In this document: piece by piece, positions 18,661 through 48,351 of the stretch
Layout of the letters: each line of letters opens with the position of its first letter
Position numbering within the stretch: the first letter of the stretch is position 1
Virus record (IMG/VR): IMGVR_UViG_2654588181_000001
Direction: 5' to 3' (one strand)
DNA: 48,351 nucleotides
Source: a virus
Taxonomy: Duplodnaviria > Heunggongvirae > Uroviricota > Caudoviricetes
Made by a program: the position numbers and the translations under genes
Notes under the pieces: model-generated
Seen by the model: the letters and a program-made list of their open reading frames with translations, nothing else
What the model was told of the DNA's origin: nothing
The model's database searches: none

Positions 18661-19221
18661 TTATTCTTCCTGCTTAATAAATCGGGATTCCTGGAGCGCC
18701 TGAAGCGCAAAATTAATCTCGTCTTCAATAATGCGTTCGATCTCCCTGGCTGTTTTGCCTTCACAACGGGGAGCTGCTCTTGGAGCAATACTAAATAAGC
18801 GGCTACGCAATTCATTAGCTGCCAGAAATGCATCATCCCTGACCGCATCTTTAGCGATGAGAGAGCCTTCCTTTTCTTCAAATTCAAGGCGTTTCAGCTT
18901 TGCCTGATAAATTTTTTCTGCGGTCTTAGCCTTGTTGAATTGCACTGCAACACCGGAAGTACCACCAGCTAATCCGGCATCATCAGCGGGTAACTCTGGT
19001 TGTTCCGAAGATATCCCATGCCCTCTTTTTCCATTTTCAGCAGATACCTCACGACCAACCTGTCGGCTCGCTTCATAAGCCGCACTAGCTTTATCAAAAT
19101 CCAGCTTGCCGCTTTTCAGCACTGGAATGCGACCGGAACGACAGAGCTTCGTAACCATTGCCGGAGAAATACCTTTTCGGCGGGCAAACTCTGACTTACT
19201 GACGATGGCCATTACTTGCAA
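18661..19221 (-). CDS. terminase small subunit, Nu1-like (HTH)
   Basis: 186-aa ORF immediately upstream of terminase large subunit; N-terminal HTH. Confidence 0.55.
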   Translation of the reverse strand: MQVMAIVSKSEFARRKGISPAMVTKLCRSGRIPVLKSGKLDFDKASAAYEASRQVGREVSAENGKRGHGISSEQPELPADDAGLAGGTSGVAVQFNKAKTAEKIYQAKLKRLEFEEKEGSLIAKDAVRDDAFLAANELRSRLFSIAPRAAPRCEGKTAREIERIIEDEINFALQALQESRFIKQEE

Positions 19222-19802
19222 CCATTAGCAAGATACTGAACAAATCCCTCATGCGTTTCATGCGCGTCGTGGTACTGACGATAAACATCCAGCAACAATG
19301 CAATTTCCATATCCGTCGCGGGAATACGTTCTTTATCAATAGCCAGGTACTTAATTTGAACAACAGGGGAAGAATTATCGTCTTCTTCCTGCGGCTGTTC
19401 ATCGCTTAACATTTCGTCAAGCTCTGCATCATTAAACCCAAGCAGATCAATATCAAAATCATCATCCATTAACGCTTTGACTTCTTCGGCCAGAAGCTGC
19501 ATATCCCAGCCAGCATTTAAGGCCAGCTTGTTATCTGCAATCCTGTAAGCCTTCTTCTGTTTTTCAGAAAGGTTACTCAACCGAATCGCTGGAACTTTAT
19601 CCATTTCCAGAATTTCGGCTGCTGCAAGCCGCCCATGCCCCGCAATCAGTTCATTCTTTTCATCGATCAGCACAGGATTAGTGAAACCGAACTCACGGAT
19701 ACTGTTCACCAACTGTTCAACTTGCTCATCTGAATGAGTCCGTGAATTTTTGGCGTATCTGAGCAGCTTACCGACTGGTAAATATTCGATTTTTAGAGCC
19801 AT
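19212..19802 (-). CDS. ParB-like N-terminal domain protein (paralog 1)
   Basis: 196-aa ORF; ParB/Srx-type motif ...LIDEKNELIAGHGRLAAA...; clear paralog of 22469..23092. Confidence 0.7.
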   Translation of the reverse strand: MALKIEYLPVGKLLRYAKNSRTHSDEQVEQLVNSIREFGFTNPVLIDEKNELIAGHGRLAAAEILEMDKVPAIRLSNLSEKQKKAYRIADNKLALNAGWDMQLLAEEVKALMDDDFDIDLLGFNDAELDEMLSDEQPQEEDDNSSPVVQIKYLAIDKERIPATDMEIALLLDVYRQYHDAHETHEGFVQYLANGCK

Positions 19803-20359
19803 TTTTTAACCGCCATAACACAACAGGTTAAAGAAAACTGTTTAACTTATTGATACTAAAAGAGAAAAATGACGATCTTTTTACTCATAAAAAATCACAC
19901 AAACCAGCATAATCATCTGATTTTATTAAGTTTTTATAAGTAAAAAGGATCTTGAGATGGTGTTTTGGTTAAAAGATTGGATGTATTTGCATGATTTATA
20001 ACGATTTTTATCAGAACAACATCACATTGGTTAAAGATCTGCGCGTATCTTGATGATCTAAAAGAAAATTTTCTACTTTCTTTTTACCAGCACAAATACA
20101 GCAAAAAATCACGTTTTCCCGATATTTTTCAATGAGATGAGTAAATTTCTTTTACCGCAACTTTTAACCTAACTTTTTTCACGTTTAGCTAGCCGAACAT
20201 CGGGGTTCGAATGACCCGCATCCAACGCTTTTGGCCAGAAGGACCCAATTCTGCCGGACGATGAAACGATGCTCGTGCTCCCCCACAGACAGCCAGCGAG
20301 CGACGCTACAGAACACAGTGAATACACTCTGCATAACAACACCATCAACCACACGATGA

Positions 20360-21095: not shown

Positions 21096-22475
21096 CTACT
21101 TAATCAACGGCCGGAAAGCCGCCAGCACATCATCAGATCGTCCGATTGTTGAACCACCAGGCAACGGCAACTCAAACTCAAAACGAACAGCTTTCTCCAG
21201 ACTCGCCCAACTAAGGGAATCATCGTTAATGACGTGCAAATACCAGCTCTTACAGTTGAATATTGACCGCTTAATCCTGAAACCATGTACACGACACAAC
21301 TGCTTCACTTCCTCATCAGAGTGAAACTTCTGGTAAAACCAGTGCCCCTTCCGGTACAACGCGGTAAAACCGTTATGATCAATAAAATAAAGCCGGCTTT
21401 TGGAACTCGCCGCTTGTGTCTGCTTCAGGACTGTTTCCAGCTCTCCACGGCTACGGCCAGAAAAGAATATTGACCCACCAGCTTTACACAGCCCTTTCAG
21501 AACCGTCAGAACGGACCATTCAGCCTCGACACTATCGACCGAGTTCAAAACGCTATCGCAAATCACGTAGTCGTAACGCCCTCGCGTTTTTAAGTCGTCC
21601 ACCAGCGTATCAATCATCCGGTTTGTTGCGGTCCTATCCAGAGTGTTTCCAGCGCCCTTACGGCGGAAAAGCTCAAGATCATGCAGGTTATATCCCTTTG
21701 CCCTGAGCATTCGCGCGTAGTCTCCCTGACCCGAACCAAAATCAATTCCTCTTGGCGTCTTGGCAATGATCGGGAGGATCAACGACTCATACAGGTTTGA
21801 TTTCAGGCTGCCACCATTACGCAACCGCATAAGCTGCGCATACGTCTGGATGTATGTTGTTTTCTCCAGATGAGAATACTCAAATACACCATAAGTTTTA
21901 TTCAGATAACTTTGGTATTTTTCCTTCTCAACATCAGGGATCACAAACACCGTTAGCGGTGTGCGCGTCATCTTCGCTGCTAATGCATACTGAGCACAGT
22001 GAATAACCTCGCCAGACTGCGTAGCAACACAACCACCCCACGGACCATACTTGATAACCAGTTCCGCTATGTTCTTTCGAACATATGCCATTTTCGCGCG
22101 CATATTGCCTGAAATCTGGCTTGCCGATACCTGAACAAAACCATGCTTATCTCCCAGACCTGACACCCTGCAACGCTCATCTCCGCTATCAAAATCCGTT
22201 CCGTTATGCAGTTGGTTAAACCGTACTTCGTCGTATACCGTCGTTTCACAGGGCAACACATACACCGCAGCACGCGTTATTCCCAACTTACGTAGCGCCT
22301 TCGTCCTTTGGTGTCCCGCCACCAGCAAATCGCCGCGCACTATCAATGGCTTCACAAGCCCCAGCTCCCTGACGCTTTCCGCCAGCCTCGCAAGATCATC
22401 CTCACCGATAAAACGCGGGTTATATTCCGCGCCGCGTAGGTGCGTTATGTCGTAATTGAGATGAAGCATCAGCAC
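21096..22475 (-). CDS. ParB-like N-terminal domain fused to SAM-dependent methyltransferase domain
   Basis: 459-aa ORF; N-terminal ParB-like segment (LVAGHQRTKALRKLG); class-I MTase motif I-like IDFGSGQGDYARML and DYVICDSVLN. Confidence 0.65.
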   Translation of the reverse strand: MLMLHLNYDITHLRGAEYNPRFIGEDDLARLAESVRELGLVKPLIVRGDLLVAGHQRTKALRKLGITRAAVYVLPCETTVYDEVRFNQLHNGTDFDSGDERCRVSGLGDKHGFVQVSASQISGNMRAKMAYVRKNIAELVIKYGPWGGCVATQSGEVIHCAQYALAAKMTRTPLTVFVIPDVEKEKYQSYLNKTYGVFEYSHLEKTTYIQTYAQLMRLRNGGSLKSNLYESLILPIIAKTPRGIDFGSGQGDYARMLRAKGYNLHDLELFRRKGAGNTLDRTATNRMIDTLVDDLKTRGRYDYVICDSVLNSVDSVEAEWSVLTVLKGLCKAGGSIFFSGRSRGELETVLKQTQAASSKSRLYFIDHNGFTALYRKGHWFYQKFHSDEEVKQLCRVHGFRIKRSIFNCKSWYLHVINDDSLSWASLEKAVRFEFELPLPGGSTIGRSDDVLAAFRPLIK

Positions 22476-23092
22476 ACCTCCCCAGCCAGCAATGCGGATA
22501 CAAATCCGATATAGCTGCCATTATCATCAACATAACGAGATACCGCGCAGTCAAAACGATCCGCTTCCTCATCCGTTGCCGGGATTTTATGACCTCCAAA
22601 TGACAGGTACTGAACTTTTACGCCTGATTTGGCCTCATCCTTCTCAAATGGGATATCCATACCCTCTGTGTCATCGTAGACCGCCGCACTCAATAAGTTA
22701 TCCAGTTCGCGCTGAGTAAAACCAATTGAGTCCAGAGCAAAATCATCGGCCGCAAGATCTGCAAGTTCCGCGCTTAACAACTCTTCATCCCAACCAGCAT
22801 TCAGCGGAATACGGTTGTCGGCCAGACGATATGCCTTCTTCTGATTCTCCGTTAGCCCTTCCAGAACAATGCAGGGAACGTCATCCATCCCCAACTGAGT
22901 GGCCGCAGCAATTCGACCATGACCAGCAATTACAACGTTGTTCTCGTCTATCAGGATCGGATTAGTCCATCCGTACTCCTGTATGCTGGCAACAATCTGA
23001 TCTACCTGCTCCACGGAGTGTGTGCGAGCGTTCTTTTCATAACCAATCAACACAGAAAGTGGTAAAGAAACCACATTAAGATGTTTTGTCAT
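22469..23092 (-). CDS. ParB-like N-terminal domain protein (paralog 2)
   Basis: 207-aa ORF; ...ILIDENNVVIAGHGRIAAA...; about half identical to 19212..19802 by eye. Confidence 0.7.
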   Translation of the reverse strand: MTKHLNVVSLPLSVLIGYEKNARTHSVEQVDQIVASIQEYGWTNPILIDENNVVIAGHGRIAAATQLGMDDVPCIVLEGLTENQKKAYRLADNRIPLNAGWDEELLSAELADLAADDFALDSIGFTQRELDNLLSAAVYDDTEGMDIPFEKDEAKSGVKVQYLSFGGHKIPATDEEADRFDCAVSRYVDDNGSYIGFVSALLAGEVC

Positions 23093-23326
23093 GCCGTTTA
23101 TCCGCTAAAATCCCCTCGCTTGTGCAAGCAAGTGGGCCTCGGTTTGTATCCACGGCACCCTGTGGGTATGAATGACTGTCGTCAGGTCGCAACTGACGGC
23201 GGTCGCCCACCTTCCAGTAATAAAAAAGCCACCAGCATTAACTCCACAGCGAGCTGGAGTTAATGAGGCAGCTTTGGTTTGCGCATTATCGCAGCCCCTG
23301 ATAGGCACAAGAGCTGCTGTAATGCG

Positions 23327-23806
23327 TTACGCAGGGATCAAACGGAGGCAGCCGTTATTTACCTCAATACGAGAGTATTCCGGCTTACCATCAACGATTC
23401 CGGTAATGACAAGTTCGCCATCAGATGAGCATTCTTCTTCGTCGTCTTCAAGTACCGCGCCTTCTGGCAAATCAATACAGGCAAAAACAGGGCAGCCAGG
23501 ATGACGTTTATCCTCCATCGCAATCAGCATCGACTCACCGAACCACTCTGTGGTAGCACGGCCATCAGCCGCCTGATAGTGAATCAGATACTGGTTTTCG
23601 CCATTTGCATACTGAGCACGGGCTTGAACTTCTCCCCATTCGTCACTGATACGCATTGTTACCAGTTGGGATAATTCAAACTTAAACGGAACAGACTCTG
23701 CACCAATGGCAATCGGTTTATCTTCTTTCTTTTCCATAACATCACCTGAAAATAAAAAGCCCCGCGACACCGCGAGGCTGTAAGAGTTACTTTCGATAGA
23801 AATCAA
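23327..23806 (-). CDS. hypothetical acidic protein
   Basis: 159-aa ORF, last gene of cassette-1-driven operon; true start may be internal Met. Confidence 0.45.
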   Translation of the reverse strand: MISIESNSYSLAVSRGFLFSGDVMEKKEDKPIAIGAESVPFKFELSQLVTMRISDEWGEVQARAQYANGENQYLIHYQAADGRATTEWFGESMLIAMEDKRHPGCPVFACIDLPEGAVLEDDEEECSSDGELVITGIVDGKPEYSRIEVNNGCLRLIPA

Positions 23807-23935
23807 GGCGCATTTGCTCCCGCTTAAGCCGAAAAGCTCTCTGCGCCACTAAGATGCGCCACAGGACACCAGCAATAACCACCAGCGAGATACAAAAACA
23901 CACGGCCACAACCATCAGAAAAATGCAAAGACCAT

Positions 23936-24148
23936 TCATGAAACTATCCATTTTTCAATGAATACCTCCAGTAATATCAAGAGATACGCCGTACCCAGCG
24001 CGGTTCCTACCGATATAGCTAAGACAAACCTCAAAGATAACGAGGTGTCTTTCGCTTTTCTCCAGACGTAAGCGCCAGCCAGAAATACCAACAAATCTCT
24101 TATTGGAAGCGGAAACCAGAACAAATCACTCGGCATAAGCACGATCAT
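23936..24148 (-). CDS. small membrane protein
   Basis: 70-aa ORF with two hydrophobic segments. Confidence 0.4.
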   Translation of the reverse strand: MIVLMPSDLFWFPLPIRDLLVFLAGAYVWRKAKDTSLSLRFVLAISVGTALGTAYLLILLEVFIEKWIVS

Positions 24149-24425
24149 CTTCCGCTGCTGATTTACACGCCGCAGTTACTGATATATTGATAACCGGTGC
24201 GCTAATCGTGATGGACGACGCTGTCGGTTGACGCGATATAACTGAACGATGGCTATCAAGGAAGTCCACAATCTCATTCAGGCACTCTTTAGCTGCCTCA
24301 TCGTGACTTTTTCCGTATGCTTCATGGAGGACTTTCATCCTCATCATTGCTCCGTCACATATAGTCGAAAGCGCGTAAAGCACATCACTAGCCGCCATTT
24401 CTTTTTTGGTGCTTGTCGAAGGCAT
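24126..24425 (-). CDS. hypothetical protein
   Basis: 99-aa ORF. Confidence 0.4.
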   Translation of the reverse strand: MPSTSTKKEMAASDVLYALSTICDGAMMRMKVLHEAYGKSHDEAAKECLNEIVDFLDSHRSVISRQPTASSITISAPVINISVTAACKSAAEDDRAYAE

Positions 24426-24499
24426 CCCATGTTCTCCTTTGTCTGGATGTAAAAAAGCCCCGGCAATTGCCGAGGCTCGTTGTTCGTTATCGTTACGGT

Positions 24500-24700
24500 T
24501 TAATGCTCGCGTCGTCCGGCGACAACTTCGGATTTGTATTTCAGGTCGCCCAGCAAGAATTGCAGTTTAAGCATCTTTGCCGCCGTGTAGTTCCCTGATT
24601 CCACAACCTCTTTCATGAGGTCATAAACGGCCGCAACATCATCAGCCAGGAACTCTTTGCGTTGCTGCTCAGTCGCACGTTTGAAGGAAATACGCATCAC
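24500..24700 (-). CDS. hypothetical protein
   Basis: 66-aa ORF overlapping stop of upstream gene. Confidence 0.4.
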   Translation of the reverse strand: MMRISFKRATEQQRKEFLADDVAAVYDLMKEVVESGNYTAAKMLKLQFLLGDLKYKSEVVAGRREH

Positions 24701-24966
24701 TCATCATCTCCTGCCGCACATACAACCTCACAAAAAACATCAGCGGAATGTTTCTTTTTGAATGAATGGCGCTCAAAACCGCACTCAATATCAGGCGCAA
24801 AAACATCCACCACATACGGTCTTTCAGAATGTTTGTTTTCCCAACGATAAACCGTAGTGACGTTGAAATGTTTTAACGCTTCACGGAACTCAACGCTGCC
24901 CGTCAGGTTTTTTGAGGTCAGGTATTGCAGGAGGTTTTTTACTACTTCACGGTCTTGTACTTTCAT
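24697..24966 (-). CDS. hypothetical protein (first gene after promoter-leader cassette copy 1)
   Basis: 89-aa ORF; ATG preceded by CCGGAGATAACCCG leader. Confidence 0.5.
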   Translation of the reverse strand: MKVQDREVVKNLLQYLTSKNLTGSVEFREALKHFNVTTVYRWENKHSERPYVVDVFAPDIECGFERHSFKKKHSADVFCEVVCAAGDDE

Positions 24967-25083
24967 CGGGTTATCTCCGGTTTAACCAGGGCGGGTATCG
25001 CTCGGTTTCGGGTATAACCATAGGAAATTTTTTCCCACCTGTAAAGCACCTTTTATATAAATATATAATTATATAATTCTATG
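24967..25083 (-). promoter_or_regulatory. repeated promoter-leader cassette, copy 1
   Basis: Near-identical to 31746..31865 and 41210..41330; -35 TTTACA, 17-nt spacer containing GGAAAAAATTTCC, -10 TATGGT, ~60-nt conserved leader, GGAG then ATG. Confidence 0.6.
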
Positions 25084-25666
25084 CCACTTGCCAGAGAGCA
25101 TCATGCAACTGGATACCTCCATTGCACTGGTTGCCCCAGCCATGCCAGCCATCAGGTAAATCACCGCGAGCAAACAGCTCAATACGGGGAACATCACCTA
25201 ACAGCCTTACCAGCTTGTCACGAACCACATCAGGCTTCCGAGAATGCTCCAGACGAGGCGATGTAAACGACTGAATGATCCCCGCATCAAGGCGGGTCGG
25301 CAGTTTGCCTTTTACCGCAAACAAGCAATCTTCACTGTTTGCACGAGTCATATGCCCCATCCCCATCACCAGCTTATCTGGTTGTCGGCTACCACATTTG
25401 TTCCATGTGAAGCCCTTCATGGTCATCAGCCTGAATCCCCATGCTTTCACCACCAGCAACGCTTCTTCTGGCTGAGTCGGAACCCACCACATGGCCAACA
25501 AACACGATTCAGGATTAGCAAGCTGCCAGACAGGAATACGAGCAATATCCTCAGCTTTCATCGTTGGATACTTAAAACCAGCGCCACGATTCCCATCCTT
25601 ACACTTGTCTTTGTATTCCCAGGGGGGATCTGCATAAATCAGATTAAACAATGCAATTGCCTCCAT
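25079..25666 (-). CDS. DNA N6-adenine methyltransferase, MT-A70-like
   Basis: 195-aa ORF with catalytic DPPW motif (LIYADPPWEY). Confidence 0.75.
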   Translation of the reverse strand: MEAIALFNLIYADPPWEYKDKCKDGNRGAGFKYPTMKAEDIARIPVWQLANPESCLLAMWWVPTQPEEALLVVKAWGFRLMTMKGFTWNKCGSRQPDKLVMGMGHMTRANSEDCLFAVKGKLPTRLDAGIIQSFTSPRLEHSRKPDVVRDKLVRLLGDVPRIELFARGDLPDGWHGWGNQCNGGIQLHDALWQVA

Positions 25667-25973: not shown

Positions 25974-26049
25974 TGGTGGCCCCTACCGGATTTGAACCGA
26001 TGACCGTGCGATTATGAGTCGCCTGCTCTAACCACTGAGCTAAGGGGCC
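25974..26049 (-). tRNA. tRNA with CAU anticodon (Ile2/lysidine type or Met), CCA encoded
   Basis: 76-nt cloverleaf: GGCCCCT acceptor stem, D-arm TAGCTCAGTGGTTAGAGCA, anticodon loop CTCATAA, T-loop GGTTCAAATCC, 3' CCA; first ~42 nt match my recollection of E. coli ileX. Confidence 0.8.
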
Positions 26050-26218
26050 ATATTTGATTTGTTTGTCTGGTGTGGCGCCGCGCACGAAAATCCCAGCCAA
26101 TAAATTCAGGATTTTTGGGCGCGGCGGCATATCAGACAAACATGGTTGATGCGTGCGCCCATGAGAAAAGCGCATAGAATGTTGTAACTATATATTTATA
26201 TAATTATAGAAATATATA

Positions 26219-26428
26219 TTACTTTCGGCAGTTGATTTCCCATGCCCTGTTATGAGCCAGAATATCTTTCTTTGTCTGGCGGTCCATAACATCGATGTCG
26301 TGATCAGTCAGGTAGATGGGCTTTACCCAATCACAGGCGGTATCAACCACCACCGGGACGCTTCCACGACTCCCGCAGCTCGCGATCAACATCGTCATCA
26401 GCCATATGGTTAACACTCTGCTGTACAT
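26219..26428 (-). CDS. o-spanin (Rz1-like lipoprotein), overlapping in alternate frame
   Basis: 69-aa ORF with lipobox-like LIASC; overlaps 3' end of Rz-like gene. Confidence 0.5.
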   Translation of the reverse strand: MYSRVLTIWLMTMLIASCGSRGSVPVVVDTACDWVKPIYLTDHDIDVMDRQTKKDILAHNRAWEINCRK

Positions 26429-26621
26429 TCCCCACCTCTTTTGTCACTTCTATACGCCGCTCCGCAGTGGCTTTTACGGCGGCTGCATTCTCATTAATGC
26501 GCTGCTTTTCAGCTTCATCTTCGGCCTTTTCTCGCCCCTTCATACGACCAAAACCAAACGCGCCGAATGCAACCAATATAATTGTGCCAATAAATGACAA
26601 AACGGCCTTCAAACCAGTCAT
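26343..26621 (-). CDS. i-spanin (Rz-like)
   Basis: 92-aa ORF, N-terminal TM helix then charged coiled region; directly downstream of endolysin. Confidence 0.55.
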   Translation of the reverse strand: MTGLKAVLSFIGTIILVAFGAFGFGRMKGREKAEDEAEKQRINENAAAVKATAERRIEVTKEVGNVQQSVNHMADDDVDRELRESWKRPGGG

Positions 26622-27160
26622 ACCACCACTCGCTCTTTCATCCAGCCGTAGACAAACGACTCATTAGCCTCGCGCTTCTCCGCCAACTCCAGATAGCGTT
26701 CGCCCTGCGTACAGTTCAGCGACGTCAGCATCACCCGTTCGCCGTCTTTTCCCCGATTCCCAAGATAAGCACGCAGCGCATTAATGGTACGTGGACCGAT
26801 TCGTCCATCTGCATCCAAATCGGGATACAGCTTCCCACGCAGATTGAACACATTCAGCCAGCGTTGAAGCATTTTGGACGCCACTGTTGGCCCCATATTC
26901 ACACCGGTATCACACAGCTCTGCGGCAATATCAGAGGATAATGCAGCCACCTGATCAAAGCGTGGTCCGTACCAGTAATCAGCCTCAAGGATTTCCAGTG
27001 CCTGTTCGCGGGTTAAATCGCGCATATCGCCACGGTATCCATGAGCACGGGCAGTGTTCTGAGTAATGCCCCACTTTGTTGGGCCTCCCTTGTCGTCAGG
27101 GTGATCCACATAGCCGCCCTCTTTTCCAAGAACGCTGTTAAAAATCTCATCTTTGGTCAT
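26618..27160 (-). CDS. endolysin (GH108-like muramidase with peptidoglycan-binding domain)
   Basis: 180-aa ORF; N-terminal EGGYVDHPDDKGGPTKWGIT motif. Confidence 0.75.
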   Translation of the reverse strand: MTKDEIFNSVLGKEGGYVDHPDDKGGPTKWGITQNTARAHGYRGDMRDLTREQALEILEADYWYGPRFDQVAALSSDIAAELCDTGVNMGPTVASKMLQRWLNVFNLRGKLYPDLDADGRIGPRTINALRAYLGNRGKDGERVMLTSLNCTQGERYLELAEKREANESFVYGWMKERVVV

Positions 27161-27479
27161 GATTAAACCCTAATGCGTCAACTATCCGCGCCAGATTGCC
27201 CCTGAAATACAGAACAACGATGCAGATAATCAGATTTCCAATAACCACCAGCCAGTGGGATTCTTGATAAAGACCGAACACATAACGGAAGGGAACATTG
27301 GCGTATACAATGACGTAGATATAAGCCAGAAAGGAAACAAATGGACGATGCCTGGAGTCTTTCCGTCGATAAAGCATCAGCGCCATTACTATTACTGTGC
27401 AAAGCACCGCATTAATCAGTGCTGACGGGTCACTGCTTACCATTTGAACCCCCTCCACGTAAGCGGGAAAGCATTCCAA
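27147..27479 (-). CDS. lysis-associated membrane protein (holin/antiholin candidate)
   Basis: 110-aa ORF with hydrophobic helices between holin candidate and endolysin. Confidence 0.45.
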   Translation of the reverse strand: MECFPAYVEGVQMVSSDPSALINAVLCTVIVMALMLYRRKDSRHRPFVSFLAYIYVIVYANVPFRYVFGLYQESHWLVVIGNLIICIVVLYFRGNLARIVDALGFNHDQR

Positions 27480-27825
27480 AGATGCTACCGAGATCCTGGC
27501 TGTTTACGAACGTGAGGATTTTAATGGTCAATGCAGCCACAATAACCGCACCAAGCGCATCCAGAGGACGATCGTTGTAGCTGGTCCATTTGGCAAGAAA
27601 TGAGCCAACTAACGGCGCTCCAATCACTCCAACAATGAACGATGTAAAGAAATAGCCAATCAGCTTGAGACGGCTAATATTCACCGCTGTAGCAACATAG
27701 AAAACAGCGCCAGCAAATGCCCCGAATACAACGCCGTAATCAATACCAGTTGCAATACCAAAAACGCTGGCACCCATCAGGCCACCAGCAGCAACGGCCG
27801 TACCGGAAATTGGTTCTGCTGACAT
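27430..27825 (-). CDS. putative holin
   Basis: Hydrophobic multi-TM ORF; start chosen at ATG 27825 preceded by GAGGA, because the upstream ATG at 27873 lies inside a terminator hairpin. Confidence 0.55.
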   Translation of the reverse strand: MSAEPISGTAVAAGGLMGASVFGIATGIDYGVVFGAFAGAVFYVATAVNISRLKLIGYFFTSFIVGVIGAPLVGSFLAKWTSYNDRPLDALGAVIVAALTIKILTFVNSQDLGSIFGMLSRLRGGGSNGKQ

Positions 27826-27838
27826 TGAAATCCTCGTT

Positions 27839-27868
27839 AAAAAAAAAGCCCCGCCGAAAAGGCAGGGC
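27839..27868 (-). terminator. rho-independent terminator upstream of lysis genes (tR'-like)
   Basis: Minus-strand GCCCTGCC-TTTTC-GGCGGGGC followed by T9. Confidence 0.55.
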
Positions 27869-28561
27869 TTCATAAAGCAACAAATTACGCGGTAATCGCT
27901 TAACGCAGTTTTACTACGTTAAATGAAACACTACACCCAGTTACCACCTAAAACAAGGTTTTCCCATAAAAAAACCTTCATATTGTGGTTAACCGATCAA
28001 TAAAAAAACAATACTTAACTTTTGACCAACCGAACATCCCGACCAGGACTTCCATAATATTCGCCGATATGCCACTGCTTAAGTTGAGTAATCTTCTCCA
28101 ACTTAACGCCCATAGAGTCCAGTTTCTGCCATGTTTTCGGTTGTATGTGCTTCATTACCCGCTCTGAATATCTGAATACTGCTCGTAAGCGCATGGCTTC
28201 TCACTACAGCTTATATAAGTGGTTTTTCCAGCGGTTTTGCGCCGCGCTGCGCTTATCTTTGACTCCCTCTCTGGCAATTCCAGAATATAAGTACAACACC
28301 ACACGGCGGTTGCTAACTCTCAACCACTGGCTGGGATAGCAACGTCTGTATACACGGGAAATAAGCATCTTTGCTTTACGGTTTTTCATCATTTTGCTCT
28401 CCTGCGTTTCTTTGCTGCACGCCGTGCAGCTGCAATACCGGTATGGCGGCGCTTTGGTGCCGGGATGATGTTGTCAGCCATCAGGACATGCGGCTTTGCA
28501 ATTAGCGCAGAAGCCCAAAAACGAGTCGGGTATGGTAACAAGCCGATACATGCCACACGCA

Positions 28562-30322: not shown

Positions 30323-30621
30323 GCCACAGCCCCTCTCAACGGCTTAACTTTGGCTAATAAGGTGTTAAACAACATGGAGTTAGGATTCATGCCAAATGGC
30401 AATTCCGGTTTAGCGGAGTAGTACAGGCAACCATTTATTTTCCTGGTTGTTATCTGTCCTTCGGCAACCATGCTTCTCAGTCTGCAACGCATAGAGTTCT
30501 GCGACACACCAATGTGCTCCGCGATTACGTCCACTTTTGAACATGGGTGATCGGTCAGGAAATTAATCACATCTTGGGGGTTAATAATTTTGCGTTTCAT
30601 TGTCGAGGCGTCCTTATACAT
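30319..30621 (-). CDS. small HTH DNA-binding protein (first gene of 4-gene operon); start may be second ATG at 30600
   Basis: 100-aa ORF; AT-palindrome motif and terminator hairpin immediately upstream. Confidence 0.5.
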   Translation of the reverse strand: MYKDASTMKRKIINPQDVINFLTDHPCSKVDVIAEHIGVSQNSMRCRLRSMVAEGQITTRKINGCLYYSAKPELPFGMNPNSMLFNTLLAKVKPLRGAVA

Positions 30622-30677
30622 TTATATAAATATATAATTCTATATACGGCGGGAGACATCCCGCCGTAGGCTTACTG

Positions 30678-31745
30678 TCAGGCTTTCAATAGCGATTCTT
30701 TCAGATATCGGGCATCAGCCAGGGCGTTTGGAGTAATCTTGCGAACCCATGCATTACGGGTTGGACTCCACTTAAAGGCGCGTGATTTAAGCAGCGAACG
30801 AATGTTTGCCTCTGGTTTGCCAGGGAAATAAAACAGGATGCGGTTATCCTCTGGATCTATCTCCATAGAAAAGCCGTCGTATTCTTCGCGCTGTGCTCCT
30901 GTTACAGACTTGACCGATTCAAGCTCCTTAATACGGCTCTGTAGTCGTTTGATTTCGGCGTTATTGTTGCTCAGTGCGTATGAAGGGAATCCGATGCGCC
31001 CACAGAAATCTCCGGCCAGTAACTCTTTGGCTTCGCTTTCTGTAAACCTGAGATCGATTAATGCAGAAAGCTGCTGTATTTGGTCTTTTTTGTATTTGCG
31101 AATGGCCTTATTTGCGGCCTTCATTTTGACGTGTGACTTCATGCAGCCTTGCAGCTTACGAAGCAACTTAAATAGCGCATCAGGATCATCAGACGAAATT
31201 CCATTACGACCAACACCTGCGGCTTTGCTCTCGTAGTGTGATGCTTTACTTTCGCATTCAACAAACGCTTTTCTGAATAACGCATCAGCTTTAGACAAAC
31301 GGCGGCGATGGCCTTTCGCGCTATAATGGTCAACTAAAATCGGCTGGCCTAACGGGATCACATCCAACAGGTCATGCGCTCGCTTATGCGCTACCGCACC
31401 TTCTTTTCTGGCTTTTTCTGCACGAGCAATATATCGGGCAAGACGCGCGTTCTGGCGTTCCTGATAGGTGTTTACGTAATCATCTCCGCGCTGCTGCTGT
31501 TCAAGCCATGCTTTGCGCAGATCTTCTGTTACGTCCACCAGCTCCGCAGGGATACAACCAGTTTGGGCTTCATAAGAGTAACCATCCTCATAGATACGCC
31601 CATCGTCTTCAACAAAGAAAAAGGTTTCGTGCTCATCGCTTTTGACCATACGACCATTAACATGGCGTAATAGGTAGCCAGTATCAGTGCTTAACAGGCT
31701 GTTAGGGTTGTTGATCCAGTCAGAAATAATTACTTGTTTATTCAT
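30678..31745 (-). CDS. conserved hypothetical protein (possibly DUF3560-like)
   Basis: 355-aa ORF directly driven by promoter-leader cassette copy 2. Confidence 0.55.
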   Translation of the reverse strand: MNKQVIISDWINNPNSLLSTDTGYLLRHVNGRMVKSDEHETFFFVEDDGRIYEDGYSYEAQTGCIPAELVDVTEDLRKAWLEQQQRGDDYVNTYQERQNARLARYIARAEKARKEGAVAHKRAHDLLDVIPLGQPILVDHYSAKGHRRRLSKADALFRKAFVECESKASHYESKAAGVGRNGISSDDPDALFKLLRKLQGCMKSHVKMKAANKAIRKYKKDQIQQLSALIDLRFTESEAKELLAGDFCGRIGFPSYALSNNNAEIKRLQSRIKELESVKSVTGAQREEYDGFSMEIDPEDNRILFYFPGKPEANIRSLLKSRAFKWSPTRNAWVRKITPNALADARYLKESLLKA

Positions 31746-31865
31746 CAGATTTCTCCGGTTTAACCAGGGCGGGTATCGCTCGGTTTCGGGTATAACCTTA
31801 GGAAATTTTTTCCCACCTGTAAAGCACTTTTTATATAAATCTATAATTATATATTTATAGATTTT
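31746..31865 (-). promoter_or_regulatory. repeated promoter-leader cassette, copy 2
   Basis: Same ~115-bp element as copies 1 and 3; -10 variant TAAGGT; leader ...CCGGAGAAATCTG ATG. Confidence 0.6.
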
Positions 31866-34284: not shown

Positions 34285-34402
34285 ACCACGATATGTGGTA
34301 TTAAAACCACATATCGTGAGTTTTTCAATGGGCGAAACAAAAAATAACCTTCTATTTGTGGTCCACCTCTCGTCTTACCATGTGAAAACCACTAAATGTG
34401 GT
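34285..34402. promoter_or_regulatory. divergent promoter/operator region with ACCAC-N5-GTGGT operators
   Basis: ACCACGATATGTGGT (34285..34299), ACCACATATCGTG (34306..34318), GTGGTCCAC (34357..34365), ACCACTAAATGTGGT (34388..34402). Confidence 0.65.
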
Positions 34403-34439: not shown

Positions 34440-35096
34440 ATGAAAAGCAACGACGAGAACATCAAGAAAGAAATAGGTCTGCGCATTCAGACTCTACGGA
34501 AACAATCCGGCATGACTGCCGGAGATCTCCAGCAAGTCACTGGAATAGGCTTAAGCACCTTGCAGAACTATGAGGCCGGATTAAGACAACCATCTATACC
34601 TGCCATCAAGAAAATCGCGCACGCCCTAAAAGCATCAGCGCCTTACATCGCGTGCTTAACAGATAACCCGTTCCCACCCCAGAATACTAACGCTCCTGTT
34701 ATTCCTGGGCTTGTAGCTATAAAAAATGACATAGCATCGCACGCCGGAGAAAAGCCTGTGCTGGCGATAGAACAGGAGATTTTACGAAGCAAGAACATCA
34801 ACCCATCGTCTCTGTCAGTTCTCCAGAGCAACGATGAGTTAATGTCACCAACAATATCCCCTGGCTCCCAAGTCCTGATTAATACAGACGATACAGAGAT
34901 TCATGAGGGGATCTATGCCCTTGAAGACAGAAATGGCCTAGTTGTTTTGAGGCACTGTAGAGTCATACCGGGTGACAATGCTGTTATGCTGTCAACCGAA
35001 AGGGATGCTGAAATGAACACTAAGCATCTGAATAACGAGGAATTTAAGCGTTATAAAGTTCTTGGCCGCGTAGTTAGTGTTGTCAACTGGTTATGA
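34440..35096 (+). CDS. CI-like repressor (HTH plus S24/LexA-like autocleavage domain)
   Basis: 218-aa ORF; N-terminal HTH; C-terminal ELMSPTISPGSQVLIN resembles S24 Ser-nucleophile region. Confidence 0.8.
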   Translation: MKSNDENIKKEIGLRIQTLRKQSGMTAGDLQQVTGIGLSTLQNYEAGLRQPSIPAIKKIAHALKASAPYIACLTDNPFPPQNTNAPVIPGLVAIKNDIASHAGEKPVLAIEQEILRSKNINPSSLSVLQSNDELMSPTISPGSQVLINTDDTEIHEGIYALEDRNGLVVLRHCRVIPGDNAVMLSTERDAEMNTKHLNNEEFKRYKVLGRVVSVVNWL

Positions 35097-35188
35097 TACA
35101 CAGCACGGCGGAAGCCGTGCATTTCTACGCTCAAAAAAACCACATTTTGTGGTTTTGACAACATGTAAAAGTATAAAAGAGGCTACGC

Positions 35189-35563: not shown

Positions 35564-35713
35564 CTGCAAGCGGGCTAACGCCCGCTTATATGATTATAGA
35601 TTTATATAATTATATAAAACGCTTTTCATCCGCCAAAAAGTTGGTTATGCTTACCTCGTTCTATAAATATAGATTTATAGAATTATATAATCAAACACAT
35701 GGAGTCTCGACAA

Positions 35714-36367
35714 ATGACTATCTCTGTAGGTATTTTCAACGGAAAAGGTGGCGTAACCAAATCAACAATTGCCCGTGCTTTAGCAGTTGCTTATGCAAAG
35801 GCTGGCTGGAATGTATGCCTGATCGATATGGATGTGCTTAACGGAACGGTAACGCGTTGGGTACAACGCAGAATGGCCAACAATATCGAACCAGCAATCG
35901 CGGCGCAGCCGTGCGGCACACCATCACAAGTCCAGAAAATCATCGAATCAGAAGTATACGACCTGGTTATCGTTGATGGCGGTGCCTACGCATCTGAATC
36001 AGTACCGAAGCTATCTGAATTTCTGGATATGGTTATTTTGCCAACCCGATTCTCTACCGATGACCTGGAAACCACCGTTAACACTGCTCACGGCATCGTT
36101 AAAAAGGGTGTACCAATCAAGAAAATTTGCATGGTGTTTTCCGGCGCGGCTGAAAACGAAGCTGACTATATTGAAGCCCAAGAGTACCTGGCTAATACGC
36201 CATACTTTGTTGTCGATAAGTACATTCCCCACAAGCCAGCTCTGAGCAAAGCTCAGGATAAGGGCTTAAGCCTCATTGAATGCTCATACGTTGCGCCACG
36301 CAAAAAGGCAGACGACGTTATTCAGGGGATTATCAACCAGCTTGAGGCTCTGACTACTGCCGCGTAA
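35714..36367 (+). CDS. parA: ParA-family partition ATPase
   Basis: Deviant Walker A GIFNGKGGVTKST at N-terminus; ATG at 35714 with GGAG 10 nt upstream. Confidence 0.85.
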   Translation: MTISVGIFNGKGGVTKSTIARALAVAYAKAGWNVCLIDMDVLNGTVTRWVQRRMANNIEPAIAAQPCGTPSQVQKIIESEVYDLVIVDGGAYASESVPKLSEFLDMVILPTRFSTDDLETTVNTAHGIVKKGVPIKKICMVFSGAAENEADYIEAQEYLANTPYFVVDKYIPHKPALSKAQDKGLSLIECSYVAPRKKADDVIQGIINQLEALTTAA

Positions 36368-36410
36368 TATATAATTATAGTTTTATAGATTTATATAAGA
36401 GGGGATACAC

Positions 36411-36659
36411 ATGGCCGCACCATCAAAACCACCAAAGAAGAACAGCAAAGGCGTACCGCCATCGATCGAACAACCGCAAGTTTTCGACCCGACTGAAACG
36501 CCAACCAGAACCAAATCAGGTGGGGCTCAAATGGCGTTTAATGTCGACCCTGAATTTAAACGCGAGTACAAAACGTTCGCCAGCTCAATGGATATGTCAT
36601 TGAAAGAAGTGCTGACAAAGTCTTTTGAGTTACTCAAGGCTCAATACAACCAGAAGTAA
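36411..36659 (+). CDS. small centromere-binding partner (ParG-like RHH)
   Basis: 82-aa ORF directly after parA; disordered basic N-terminus then MAFNVDPEFKREYKTFA RHH-like segment. Confidence 0.55.
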   Translation: MAAPSKPPKKNSKGVPPSIEQPQVFDPTETPTRTKSGGAQMAFNVDPEFKREYKTFASSMDMSLKEVLTKSFELLKAQYNQK

Positions 36660-36880: not shown

Positions 36881-36903
36881 TAAAAAAGGCCCCCGAAGGG
36901 GCC
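36881..36903 (-). terminator. rho-independent terminator
   Basis: GGCCCC-CGAA-GGGGCC hairpin followed by T-run on minus strand. Confidence 0.5.
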
Positions 36904-36909
36904 TAATCG

Positions 36910-37029
36910 CTACTTGCTGCTAATGTTTATCGTCACATTCAGAGCGTTATCAGTAATCTTCCAACCCTCCCCATGTGGCGTAAACAAAGCTCCAGTAACA
37001 ACGATAAAAATACACATACAGTATTTTTT
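36910..37029 (-). CDS. small hydrophobic peptide (40 aa) with own SD and terminator
   Basis: MKKYCMCIFIVVTGALFTPHGEGW...; AAGGG 8 nt upstream of ATG; terminator immediately downstream. Confidence 0.35.
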   Translation of the reverse strand, partial: KKYCMCIFIVVTGALFTPHGEGWKITDNALNVTINISSK

Positions 37030-37785
37030 CATTGTGTGGCCCTTACAGGCCGTTTCACGGCATCCCCACCGACGAAAACAACGCGAGAGCAAGCACGGCT
37101 GCTTGTGCTTGCATGTACGGCAACAGGAAATCCTCCCCTAAAGTCGGTGCCCGGGTGCGAATCGGCGGGAAGGTCCACAGGTATTTTACGATTATTTTAA
37201 GATTAGTAATAGGAAAGAAATTAAACGAAAAAAACAGTTTATTTTCACAAAATCAGTAACCTACCCACAATCTGTGAGTTTGCTGACACAACAAGAACCA
37301 CAATTTTTTGATGTATAATAGTGGACTATTATTACCTTTTGAGTAAAATCAATTTGCTGCTTGTGCTTGCGTGGTTGTTTATACAACAACGTAATGCTGA
37401 AAGGACCGCGAATCCGATCAGCACGAAAGAACCGTCCTCAATAGGGCGGTTTTTTTGTTTCTGCCTACCAATAAACCCACGCTATGTGGTTGTCTCTGTT
37501 AAAATCCCGCCGTATTGACATGAATGCGCCATTGGTGGACACTTTCCGAGCCGTAGCAAAATCTACGGTCGGGATTAGCCTCCTGAATAACACGATGGCG
37601 CATACCGCGTTAGCGGTTTTTTTATGCGTAGAGCACTGTTACGCCCAAATTATGGTGGGTCGTACAGGGGCGGAGAAATCCGCGCCGGTTCGTCATTGTG
37701 TCCGGTAAGGCTAACCCTGTACGGCTCACCACCATTTGATTAGCCTCGAATGGCGGTGATAGTTCCATATACTGGAGATATCACA

Positions 37786-40828: not shown

Positions 40829-41209
40829 TTACTTAACGAGGAATAAAAATGGTTTATTGTTAGGCGGTGTAATCGGGGCTGGCTCGCTTTTGCTCATGCG
40901 ATCAGTGTACCAGGCCAACTCCTTGTCAAAGTAAGCCTGATTAAAATAGGCCATGAATGTAGTTTCAAATCCATAACGACCGCTAATACGCAGCATCTGA
41001 TTGCCGTTCTCTGTTTCCAGATATACCTGGGCACGCTCCTGATTCTCCTTCAGCCAAGTTAAAGCCTCATCGCACGAGGACACACGATACTCATCATCGT
41101 AGCCGTCATCGATGCGGCTTGAAGAAGAACGGCAAATCACGCCAACAGAACCAGCCAGGATAGTTTGAATTTTAAGGAAAGCGTTTTTGCGGATTTTAAT
41201 CATGCTCAT
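40829..41209 (-). CDS. hypothetical protein (driven by cassette copy 3)
   Basis: 126-aa ORF; ATG preceded by CCGGAGATAACCCG. Confidence 0.5.
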   Translation of the reverse strand: MSMIKIRKNAFLKIQTILAGSVGVICRSSSSRIDDGYDDEYRVSSCDEALTWLKENQERAQVYLETENGNQMLRISGRYGFETTFMAYFNQAYFDKELAWYTDRMSKSEPAPITPPNNKPFLFLVK

Positions 41210-41330
41210 CGGGTTATCTCCGGTTTAACCAGGGCGGGTATCGCTCGGTTTCGGGTATAACCATAGGAAATTTTTTCCCATCCGCAAAGCACTTTTTATA
41301 TAAATCTATAATTATATAATTCTATGAGCA
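41210..41330 (-). promoter_or_regulatory. repeated promoter-leader cassette, copy 3
   Basis: Same element as copies 1 and 2; -35 variant TTTGCG; preceded by terminator 41326..41358. Confidence 0.6.
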
Positions 41331-41358
41331 CAAAAAAGCCCCTTTGCAACAGGGGCTT
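41326..41358 (-). terminator. rho-independent terminator after antitoxin gene
   Basis: AAGCCCCT-loop-AGGGGCTT followed by T-run on minus strand. Confidence 0.6.
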
Positions 41359-41372
41359 ATCATTCGTTCTGA

Positions 41373-41672
41373 TCAGATGTTAAACGCTATTCGTTTTCCT
41401 GTGGGAAGCTCAACATCCAGGCTTAATTTGCCTCCCATAGCTTCAACGTAACGCTTTAATGTCGCCAGCTTTAAATCATTTCCGCGCTGCTCCAGCTTTG
41501 TTACTGCTGGCTGGCTTATACCCATCGCCTCAGCAACCTGTTTTTGTGATAACTGGAGTTCTTCACGCATCATCTGCAAGCCGACCTCAAGAATCATCTC
41601 ATCTGCCATTTCTTTAATTCGCGCCTGGCTTTCAGGTGAACGGCTGGCAATCACCTCATCTAATGTTCTCAT
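41373..41672 (-). CDS. HTH antitoxin (HigA-like)
   Basis: 99-aa XRE HTH ORF; start overlaps toxin stop (ATGA). Confidence 0.65.
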   Translation of the reverse strand: MRTLDEVIASRSPESQARIKEMADEMILEVGLQMMREELQLSQKQVAEAMGISQPAVTKLEQRGNDLKLATLKRYVEAMGGKLSLDVELPTGKRIAFNI

Positions 41673-44457: not shown

Positions 44458-44644
44458 TTCCATATCTGGTCATTTTCCAACCAGACACCCACAATCATAA
44501 CCACGTTACGTGGTTTTAAGAGAACTCTACCACAACACTTTCGGTCATGCACGAAGTCTCTCACTGATCGAACGATAATCCACCAGTAAAAGGATCTAAA
44601 TTGGATCTCGTTTTGCGAGCATCATACTACTGGCCTAACTCCAG

Positions 44645-47389: not shown

Positions 47390-48351
47390 TTAAATACTCC
47401 CCGCGTTATACCACGTTCCATTAATGCAATACTGAATTGGCCTTGCCTGAGTTGTATCAATTAATTCATCACGGTTTCCGTTAACTGACCCCGTAACGAC
47501 ATAACCTGACCTGTCAGACCAGCCGGGACCATTCCATGTCTGAACAGATGACAGACCGCCAAGACGAATACCTGTAATAAACCTTGAGTTACATTCTGCC
47601 TGCGTGTATGCACCAACATCTCCCGCAGAGGGTTTGCGGGTTGTGGTGTAAAACTCTGACCAGTCAGCTTCAAAGCCATAACCATCACGCGCTGAACGAT
47701 AAAAGATACCGCCATTTCTGTAATTCACGCGGAACTGTACAGCAGGGCTGCTCCCCGTATTCATATTGAAGTGGAGGATTAATGTCGATGCGCCACCAAT
47801 ATTTGCGTTATAGACCCCGCTATTCCAGTTCCAGCCAACAGCTTTATCATTTCCGACAGTGCTTCCTGTTTGCCCTAAAGCAAATGCAGGCTGCTGGTTT
47901 TTCGTGTTGTAGTCTCGTCGCCAGCCAGGAGCATAAGCATCACCATGATTAATATAGGTGAATTGAGCGTTAGTAATTCCGCCGCCGCTGGACGTACTCG
48001 GCGTAGTAACGCGTATGGTCATTGCGCCGCGAGTGCCAATAACTTCCACCACAGCACCTGCAAGACAAATATTTCCGCAACCTGTATCTGTAATGACCTT
48101 ATTATTTGCATAAGCCCATGAGCCTTTGCACATCCAGTAAGGATGGTTAAATGCCCCCTGACTCTCCAGCCACGAAATAAATTGCGCAGTTGTCCAGACC
48201 TGACTATCGCCACCAATATCCACCCATGCGCTATATGCGCGACAGGCCCCAATATTTTTGGTGAAGGTATCTTTTCCCGGAATATCTGCGCCGTTCTGGT
48301 TTTTCTGTAATGCGCCAGAAGCCTGATTTACCGTTTCCTGTAAACCGAGGT
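47390..48351 (-). CDS. tail-fibre variable C-terminal part (in frame with constant part at 1..1361 across the junction)
   Basis: Minus-strand frame open from 48351: [18 protein letters not shown]...; Gly-rich distal domain ending INGTWYNAGSI. Confidence 0.8.
   Translation of the reverse strand, partial: LGLQETVNQASGALQKNQNGADIPGKDTFTKNIGACRAYSAWVDIGGDSQVWTTAQFISWLESQGAFNHPYWMCKGSWAYANNKVITDTGCGNICLAGAVVEVIGTRGAMTIRVTTPSTSSGGGITNAQFTYINHGDAYAPGWRRDYNTKNQQPAFALGQTGSTVGNDKAVGWNWNSGVYNANIGGASTLILHFNMNTGSSPAVQFRVNYRNGGIFYRSARDGYGFEADWSEFYTTTRKPSAGDVGAYTQAECNSRFITGIRLGGLSSVQTWNGPGWSDRSGYVVTGSVNGNRDELIDTTQARPIQYCINGTWYNAGSI
48327..48351. repeat. inversion crossover site, right inverted repeat (identical to 1..25)
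   Basis: TTTACCGTTTCCTGTAAACCGAGGT; core resembles gix/cix-type sites as recalled. Confidence 0.8.

Follow-up and report, generated by a model that had tools for sequence, protein, structure and literature searches.

The stretch of DNA analysed here, hereafter the window, is the 48,351-nt virus record IMGVR_UViG_2654588181_000001 (Caudoviricetes) of IMG/VR, and our subject is a block of small genes on its minus strand, between positions 23,327 and 24,966. The block consists of six small, uncharacterized, non-virion genes, which we designated A to F, organized in three units that are each closed by a terminator. In the direction of transcription the order is cassette-(A-B)-T1-(C-D-E)-T2-(F)-stem-loop-T3, where the cassette is a repeated promoter-like sequence and T1, T2 and T3 are intrinsic terminators (Table 1). 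The block is a non-structural module that is conserved in its lineage and sits at the junction between the lysis and DNA-methylase genes on one side and the packaging genes on the other.

A previous inspection of the letters of the window (the sequence-only reading) had described a single operon of five genes that lies directly after the MT-A70 methylase gene, separates it from the packaging genes, and is driven by the first of several copies of the cassette. The location holds, with cassette copy 1 lying between the MT-A70 gene and the block. The open reading frames (ORFs) of 89, 66 (or 65), 99 and 70 amino acids (aa) also are where they were placed, the 70-aa product is hydrophobic and the last product is acidic, as described. 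The gene count does not stand, since the 54-aa gene E had been missed, and neither does the idea of a single simple operon: T1, T2 and T3 partition the block, and the second and third units have no promoter of their own.

The partition rests on hairpins with the features of Rho-independent terminators. T1 to T3 have stems of 9–11 bp and U-runs of 5–6 nt, and 0 of 200 shuffled sequences fold as well. The start codon of C lies 30 nt beyond the end of T1 and that of F 21 nt beyond the end of T2, while the gene F stop codon is followed directly by a stem-loop and then by T3, whose inner stem is the hairpin that had been noticed earlier at 23230..23262. Three such terminators in a 1.75-kb block compare with one comparable structure in the 18-kb structural region downstream. 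Terminator positions are kept in diverged relatives. We compared L012 (attributed to Yokenella regensburgei), L013 and, from Salmonella, the loci L051 and L052, all with ParB proteins ~80% identical to that of the window. In these relatives, terminators with different stem sequences are found after B, after E (L012, L013) and after F (L013). The T1 hairpin and the 5′ untranslated region of C are nearly identical at the nucleotide level in L012 and L013, although the C proteins are ~25% identical. Some relatives (L012, 4287-4600; L013, 4053-4388; the B–C gap of L046) have a second terminator right after B, followed by a ~230-nt conserved non-coding insert before T1. This insert is absent from the window, has no Rfam match in its L012 and L013 forms, and might encode a small RNA, with a terminator on either side.

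The cassette is the only minus-strand promoter-like site in the block, with none after T1 or T2, so that C-D-E and F would be made only via terminator read-through. No terminator was found between the MT-A70 gene and the cassette, and the cassette therefore adds a promoter; it does not necessarily 'restart' transcription, as had been claimed, even though a shared promoter-like cassette does precede the block. Transcription would thus enter both from the σ70-like promoter of cassette copy 1 and from upstream past MT-A70, and output would step down at each terminator, being highest for A-B and lowest for F. Alternatively, expression may be conditional, with a polymerase that becomes terminator-resistant (antitermination) during lytic growth. 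Elsewhere in the window, a strong intrinsic terminator with an 11-bp stem and a long U-run lies immediately upstream of the holin genes, and hints at a terminator-resistance programme in lytic growth.

The genes are provided with Shine–Dalgarno (SD) sequences and start/stop overlaps. The start of B overlaps the stop of A (GTGATG/TGATG, as read from the sequence), and C, D and E overlap in turn. Gene A has ~36 conserved N-terminal residues and a variable C-terminal part; its product belongs to phrog_6143 (E 1.6e-52) and has just 11 homologue clusters, all from this lineage. At the locus returned for its sole distant relative, P0110, the gene called has a translation that differs from the query, and the neighbouring genes have no Pfam match. 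The product of B belongs to phrog_6621 (E 1.2e-48) and is 71% identical in L012. That of C belongs to phrog_8319 (E 4.7e-65), a family of 32 clusters confined to 45–49-kb contigs of E. coli, Salmonella, Citrobacter and Yokenella; the L012 and L013 forms of C show sub-threshold similarity to DUF1804. Gene D is unannotated in every GenBank/RefSeq relative examined, and its product is 51% identical in L013, with synonymous divergence (dS) saturated. GenBank/RefSeq relatives annotate E four codons short (50 aa). Its position, length, MD.. start (as in the 54-aa version), single hydrophobic segment and tail motif (R-I-L/F-V-x-Q-R-x-F-x-x-K-R-E...) are all kept in L012, L013 and the Salmonella loci (L051). 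A, B and C are predicted to be small cytoplasmic proteins specific to this lineage, and D and E to be small inner-membrane proteins.

Table 1. Features of the block and of the rest of the window (pI, isoelectric point; SD, Shine–Dalgarno sequence)
Feature	Position (nt)	Strand	Description
MT-A70 gene	25079-25666	-	Pfam E 3e-23; directly upstream of cassette and block
Cassette copy 1	24963..25083	-	121 nt; ends at ATGA of gene A
ATAKAWTT units of copy 1	25048-25083	-	four 8-bp units
-35-like element of copy 1	25045..25040	-	TTTACA
-10-like element of copy 1	25022..25017	-	TATGGT
SD of copy 1	24978..24975	-	GGAG
Gene A	24697..24966	-	89 aa, soluble, pI 6.1
Gene B	24500..24700	-	65 aa (start ATG 24697) or 66 aa (start GTG 24700); basic, pI 9.05
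T1	24449..24478 (hairpin 24478..24455)	-	10-bp GC-rich stem, 4-nt loop, U6; -19.4 kcal/mol, z -4.1
Gene C	24126..24425	-	99 aa; ~62 N-terminal residues conserved, middle and C-terminal modules variable
Gene D	23936..24148	-	70 aa, two hydrophobic segments; overlaps C end by 23 nt
Gene E	23787..23951	-	54 aa, one transmembrane segment and basic tail; overlaps D by 16 nt
T2	23749..23779 (hairpin 23779..23758)	-	9-bp stem, 4-nt loop, U5AU4; -21.1 kcal/mol, z -3.7
Gene F	23327..23737	-	136 aa, acidic, pI 4.4
Stem-loop	23326..23282	-	directly after F stop codon
T3	23275..23225, U-run 23224..23219	-	long hairpin; -55.4 kcal/mol for 126 nt, z -5.1
Lysis cassette	27825..26219	-	two holin-family genes, endolysin, two spanin-like ORFs
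Terminator before holin genes	27845-27871	-	11-bp stem, long U-run
tRNA	25974-26049	-	anticodon CAT; between lysis genes and MT-A70
Cassette, further copies	31741-31861, 41206-41326		88–96% identity among copies
Terminator before cassette copy 3	41336-41358	-	closes upstream operon
HTH-like ORF	41373-41672	-	99 aa
ATAKAWTT arrays	25048-25083, 26185-26225, 30614-30646, 31826-31865, 35586-35619, 35662-35691, 36365-36398, 41291-41325		three are cassette 5′ ends
parA	35699-36367		
82-aa gene	36411-36659		basic, disordered-looking N-terminus
Repressor gene	34440-35096		XRE/CI-like
ACCAC-N5-GTGGT sites	34285-34318, 34388-34402, 35139-35153, 44500-44514; 37476-37490		last site with one mismatch
isrK	37550-37623	+	Rfam gathering-level match
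C4 antisense RNA	37648-37736	+	Rfam gathering-level match
ryfA	36882-37178	-	Rfam gathering-level match
ParB N-terminal-domain genes	19212-19802, 21096-22475, 22469-23092		one fused to a methyltransferase domain
Non-coding gap	19803-20359		558 nt, AT-rich
Tandem repeats	415-807; 6165-6449		in-frame, ~130–170 nt; 120 nt

Gene F differs from the other five in its reach beyond the lineage. Its start is the ATG at 23737, which has an AGGTGA SD sequence and agrees with the RefSeq call and with the N-termini of homologues; the 159-aa version of the sequence-only reading is rejected, as its TTG start reads through the terminator. The protein consists of an SH3-like β-barrel core (residues ~14–100), an acidic linker and a small, variable C-terminal module. 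For the core there are 99 close clusters, and the 638 representatives at E ≤ 1e-3 include many stand-alone proteins of 60–70 aa. In 7 of 7 lambdoid-prophage loci examined (four in E. coli, three in Salmonella), a gene of this family is flanked by the lysis cassette on one side and the gene for the small terminase subunit on the other, regardless of terminase type, and ~160 further E. coli genomes have a chromosomal copy. No homologues of A to E were found next to F in the lambdoid prophages.

Structure prediction of full-length F by AlphaFold2 from a shallow alignment of 42 sequences was unusable (predicted local distance difference test, pLDDT, 47). Modelling of the core from 128 diverse sequences gave a small β-barrel with a pLDDT of 93.7, which has five to six strands, superposes on HspQ, and has HspQ/YccV as its closest solved structure. 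The core is thus confidently predicted to be an SH3-like barrel, closest to HspQ/YccV. Sequence comparisons point less clearly in this direction. F has no hit to the YccV-like domain (Pfam PF08755), no Pfam family covers its core, and hhalign against HspQ gives a probability of 33%. YccV-like is missing from the families returned for 48 F-family members at E ≤ 0.01; with 128 members, which gave 73 families at E ≤ 10, it is missing from the 25 most frequent. The viral structure matches of F are all uncharacterized small phage proteins. Membership of F in the HspQ/YccV-like family is not established, and an HspQ-like function is a lead, not a finding.

The cassette that heads the block occurs three times in the window, and every copy has as its last four nucleotides the ATGA that opens the first gene behind it. 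Copy 1 starts with four 8-bp ATAKAWTT units and contains -35-like and -10-like elements separated by 17 nt, a conserved GGAAA-N3-TTTCC spacer, an invariant leader of ~50 nt and an SD sequence. The σ70-like site (TTTACA-17-TATGGT) matches the consensus at 9 of 12 positions and is a consensus match only, and the TAnnnT pattern of its -10 element is kept in 16 of 16 distinct cassette copies. With 88–90% nucleotide identity in L012 and L013, where flanking proteins are 45–81% identical, the cassette is better conserved than the flanking coding DNA. Another copy heads an operon with a DUF3560 gene, inside the early/replication-side gene string. Copy 3 is directly preceded by an intrinsic terminator that closes the upstream operon, and clearly starts a new transcription unit; in a plasmid 99.8% identical to the window this upstream operon is annotated as a RelE/ParE toxin gene and then a helix-turn-helix (HTH) gene, and a 99-aa HTH-like ORF was read there in the window. 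The fold of the cassette leader RNA is weak (z -2.6), and it has no covariation support, because its outer stem is lost in L012, L013 and L046 and its inner part is invariant. Antisense control of the leader by the C4/isrK RNAs of the element was considered and rejected, as the duplex energies lie within, or just ~2 standard deviations below, those of shuffled leaders.

Two types of repeated motif bear on how the cassette may be controlled. The element contains eight ATAKAWTT arrays of ~four 8-bp units each (25 pattern hits, with 0 expected). Besides those in the cassettes, two lie upstream of parA and a third lies between parA and a gene for an 82-aa protein. This protein has a basic, disordered-looking N-terminus and a second half that, by eye, reads as strand-helix-helix or ribbon-helix-helix-like; it has no Pfam or PDB match. 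By analogy with other partition loci, this suggests that the 82-aa protein may be an omega/ParG-like centromere binder and global operator protein, and that the cassette promoters may be regulated by a partition protein. The second motif, ACCAC-N5-GTGGT, occurs at four perfect sites and at eight sites with at most one mismatch (0.64 expected). A repressor gene, XRE/CI-like with an HTH_3 domain and a weak, sub-threshold Peptidase_S24 match, lies near several of these palindromes, which are probably its operators. As the motif is absent from the cassette, the CI-type repressor probably does not act directly on the cassette promoters. Since the 8-bp arrays are shared with the partition locus, regulated expression from the cassette is as possible as expression in lysogens.

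Most of the block belongs to the core of its lineage. The order MT-A70, cassette, A, B, C, (D), E, F, ParB is kept in L012, L013 and the Salmonella loci, and the only relative to lack the whole block is a distant one, which has 59% ParB identity and no MT-A70 gene either. Among the ~70 E. coli genomes with the backbone ParB gene, A was found in 61, B with T1 in 64 at ≥80% coverage (69 when any match is counted), D with E in 68, and F in 59 at ≥80% coverage. As percentages, this is ~97% for B, D and E, 87% for A and 84% for F. The GC content of the block (46.6%) lies between that of the element (44.6%) and that of neighbouring genes (48–50%). Ratios of non-synonymous to synonymous divergence (dN/dS) of 0.12 for A (against L012), 0.2–0.3 for the N-terminal part of C and 0.2–0.4 for F are those of sequences under purifying selection. 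Over longer distances, dS is saturated for B (dN 0.18) and D (dN 0.37).

Within this constant frame, modules are exchanged. A is deleted in some relatives, where its first 8 codons are then fused to B; C occurs in forms of 99, 123, 151 and 246–250 aa; D is absent from L012 and the Salmonella locus L051; and F can be truncated, fused to a tail-fibre-assembly fragment, or replaced by a DUF2513 protein. The constant parts are B, the N-terminal part of C, and E. Judged by these comparisons, the block is a lineage core with module swapping, not a recent moron.

The element that carries the block can be identified from its ends and gene content. Positions 1-25 and 48327-48351 of the window are identical over 25 nt, and the window is thus a closed circle of 48,326 bp and not a chromosomal segment. 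Near-identical DNA was found in ~70 of 5,426 complete E. coli genomes (~1.3%), almost always as a plasmid of 47–50 kb (212 of the 215 matched places in E. coli are on plasmids), and the reference strain ATCC 25922 carries a relative as a plasmid (NZ_CP009073, 48,488 bp). The same element was found in three Yersinia phages (vB_YpM_39, 41 and 44), and its carriers in PLSDB, which assigns no replicon type to it, include E. albertii, E. fergusonii, Klebsiella aerogenes and Salmonella. For its gene content we used the RefSeq annotation of the 99.8%-identical plasmid. This lists maintenance and control genes (RepA, ParA, a RelE/ParE pair, an XRE-family repressor) together with phage genes (two holin-family genes, a GH108 endolysin, large terminase, portal, capsid and a P2-type tail), to which two spanin-like ORFs can be added from the window itself. 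With plasmid and phage genes combined, the element is a phage-plasmid. Membership in the pSLy3 group was rejected (pSLy3 is 114 kb and SSU5-like), and none of the papers searched names this lineage; look-ups by RefSeq protein accession and for DUF2513 gave nothing useful.

Several further features of the element were recorded. Three genes with a ParB N-terminal domain lie within 4 kb, one of them fused to an S-adenosylmethionine (SAM)-methyltransferase domain. Just upstream of the third of these genes (19212-19802) and the terminase-side genes is an AT-rich non-coding gap that may contain a late promoter or the cos/pac site. Going by gene order in the 99.8%-identical plasmid, the two sets of in-frame tandem repeats should fall in the tail-fibre and tape-measure genes, and are probably structural domain repeats. 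The tRNA is assigned to Met by ARAGORN and in the Yersinia-phage records, and to Ile by RefSeq. The C4 antisense RNA is known from the immI region of P1/P7, and the matches to isrK, C4 and ryfA suggest that, upstream of Rha/ORF6N-type genes, the element has a second immunity circuit, one based on RNA.

What could the products of the block do? As the sequence-only reading had it, no virion function can be recognized: searches of the six proteins against Pfam, NCBIfam, PADLOC and PDB sequences gave nothing above noise, and the PHROGs matched by A, B, C and F (E 1e-48 to 1e-65) are families without a known function. Judged from sequence, none of the six resembles a virion, lysis or packaging protein, and all virion, lysis and terminase genes can be assigned to other parts of the element. 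The lysis cassette is complete and is separated from D and E by the tRNA, MT-A70, A, B and C; a role of D and E as holin, antiholin or spanin accessories is unsupported, as they lie outside this cassette and gave no holin match in Pfam. The reading that we favour is a non-structural accessory role. Based on the sizes of the products, the membrane pair, the design of A, C and F with a conserved N-terminal and an exchangeable C-terminal part, and the adjoining DNA-methyltransferase genes (MT-A70 and the ParB-methyltransferase fusion), we infer with low confidence that the products are directed at the host cell or at competing elements and do not serve to build the particle. Candidate roles would be entry exclusion at the membrane for C-D-E, and modulation of a host factor or defence system for A-B and F. 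The composite explanation, which joins the anatomy of the block, transcription by read-through and host-directed products, stands in our judgement at an even chance, its anatomical part being much firmer than its functional part.

A number of results weigh against this explanation. None of the genes matches a known exclusion, anti-defence or defence family, and near-universal presence with ordinary GC content is as compatible with a life-cycle step that is essential and lineage-specific as with an accessory role. The dN/dS values of D and E among close relatives are 0.6–1.4, on very few substitutions, and the SD sequence of D is poorly placed. With regard to transcription, promoter-like sites in the region are no commoner than in shuffled sequence, and PHROG scans of the early-side genes returned a MarR-like protein and unknowns only, without a Q- or N-type antiterminator or late activator. 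As no antiterminator was recognized, read-through may be mere leakiness of the terminators.

A possible but doubtful alternative is that the block represents one or more classical morons, transcribed from the cassette in the plasmid-prophage state, closed by their own terminators and giving the lysogen a phenotype such as superinfection exclusion via D and E. The A-B unit has the formal anatomy of a moron (promoter-like site, genes, terminator), D and E are small membrane proteins, and the candidate CI-type operator is enriched near the repressor gene and absent from the cassette. The lysis–terminase junction, a known insertion spot for morons, also houses the F family in lambdoid prophages. 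Expression would go the wrong way, however: lying behind T1 and T2 without a promoter, D, E and F would be the least expressed genes in a lysogen. A cassette that also heads the DUF3560 operon in the early/replication-side string is unexpected for a lysogeny-specific promoter, and the repeat array that it has in common with the par locus suggests regulation. Of the features that define a moron, the block has its own downstream terminator; patchy presence among close relatives and atypical composition are not found, the block being near-universal, syntenic across genera and not compositionally foreign. As these two testable features fail, 'moron' is the wrong label for the whole block, though it may work like one. 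Of the moron or accessory operon that the sequence-only reading had proposed, the accessory part survives, through a module swapping that is typical of accessory regions, and the strict moron does not.

It is unlikely that the block serves to mark or handle phage DNA before packaging, with its products acting as cofactors or specificity factors for MT-A70 and the ParB-methyltransferase, or with F binding hemimethylated DNA to time packaging or replication. The location would suit such a role, between MT-A70 and the genes for ParB and the ParB-SAM-methyltransferase fusion and just upstream of the packaging genes. In two relatives, the N-terminal part of C weakly resembles DUF1804 (a family that presumably includes Mu gp27), although these matches are below threshold. 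The solved structure nearest to F is HspQ/YccV, a protein that has been linked to hemimethylated DNA (PMC8138528 and other papers). Here the same limits apply as above (no YccV-like Pfam support found for the F family, hhalign probability 33%), and in lambdoid prophages neither MT-A70 nor ParB-methyltransferase genes are found next to the F-family gene. Some relatives have a truncated F or, in its place, an unrelated DUF2513 protein, and it is not obvious what the membrane proteins D and E would do in such a pathway.

We consider it similarly improbable that the block is one of three operons wired to the partition system via the 82-aa omega/ParG-like repressor, which would tie their expression to the plasmid state, and that the F family consists of HspQ-like modulators of the host AAA+ proteases (Lon, ClpXP/ClpS). 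Other phages use unrelated Lon inhibitors, such as PinA of T4 and Gp4.5 of T7.

Far less credible is that A-B forms a toxin–antitoxin-like addiction or abortive-infection module that stabilizes the plasmid prophage. A and B are small, adjacent and translationally coupled by TGATG, with pI values of 6.1 and 9.05, a promoter with palindromic elements before them and a terminator behind; that A can be lost and B is always kept fits a toxin-first pair leaving an orphan antitoxin. Neither protein, however, shows a toxin fold or an antitoxin DNA-binding domain in Pfam, NCBIfam, PADLOC or PDB, a RelE/ParE pair is already present on the element, and a promoter shared with two unrelated operons is unlike the autoregulated promoter of a toxin–antitoxin system. 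The idea that some or all ORFs are chance reading frames in a non-coding spacer, for which the poorly placed SD sequence and missing annotation of D and the high dN/dS of D and E among close relatives might be cited, is largely refuted by reading frames retained across saturated synonymous divergence, the PHROG families, the conserved membrane topology and tail motif, the coupling overlaps and the confident fold of F, and deserves hardly any weight.

The phage-plasmid group of ~48 kb to which the window belongs is widespread and little described, and includes phages that plate on Yersinia pestis. The domain of F represents a so far unclassified family of barrel domains (~58 residues, hundreds of members) whose genes occupy a constant position beside those for packaging in enterobacterial prophages, and a function found for it would annotate many genomes at once. 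The corrected map, with six genes, three conserved terminators, and conserved and exchangeable modules told apart, offers exact targets for deletions and for expression studies. The block is otherwise typical: small phage genes at the lysis–packaging junction, unusually well conserved and partitioned by terminators. By itself it opens no new question beyond the corrected map and the F domain family.

Four known systems are useful for comparison. Morons, as defined by Hendrix and colleagues, are exemplified in lambdoid phages by bor and lom of lambda and gp15 of HK97. Like these, the block consists of small non-structural genes inside a long co-directional late gene string, lies at the lysis–packaging junction and includes small membrane proteins among its products, and its first unit has a putative σ70-like promoter before it and an intrinsic terminator behind. 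It differs in that it is near-universal and syntenic in its lineage and not distinct in composition, that its second and third units have terminators and no promoter, and that its promoter is a repeated cassette common to two other operons. In antiterminated late operons, intercistronic terminators are read through by a modified RNA polymerase, as with lambda Q at tR'. The block shares with attenuated and antiterminated operons the strong terminators between co-directional genes without intervening promoters, and the terminator just upstream of the holin genes is reminiscent of a late operon of the lambda tR' type; no Q, N or put-like factor or site was identified in the element, however, and the invariant cassette leader has no supported RNA structure.

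The HspQ/YccV proteins provide the third comparison. E. coli HspQ is both an activator and a substrate of Lon and also inhibits ClpS (PMC6719616; structure PDB 5ycq), and the YccV-like domain of PDIP38 modulates ClpXP (PMC7647994). In the hhalign alignment, F and HspQ share a KF-x-L/G-Q-x-V start and a D-x-x-HP end, whereas F lacks the long HspQ insertion and has an added acidic linker and small C-terminal module, and the sequence relationship is not significant. Finally, a parallel can be drawn with global regulators of low-copy plasmids. Omega of pSM19035 and ParG of TP228 are both centromere-binding proteins and global regulators. The short direct-repeat arrays upstream of several promoters and around parA, and the small protein with a disordered basic N-terminus encoded after parA, recall these systems in their sequence pattern. 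In contrast to omega and ParG, the arrays of the element would tie phage operons, and not only plasmid-maintenance genes, to the partition protein.

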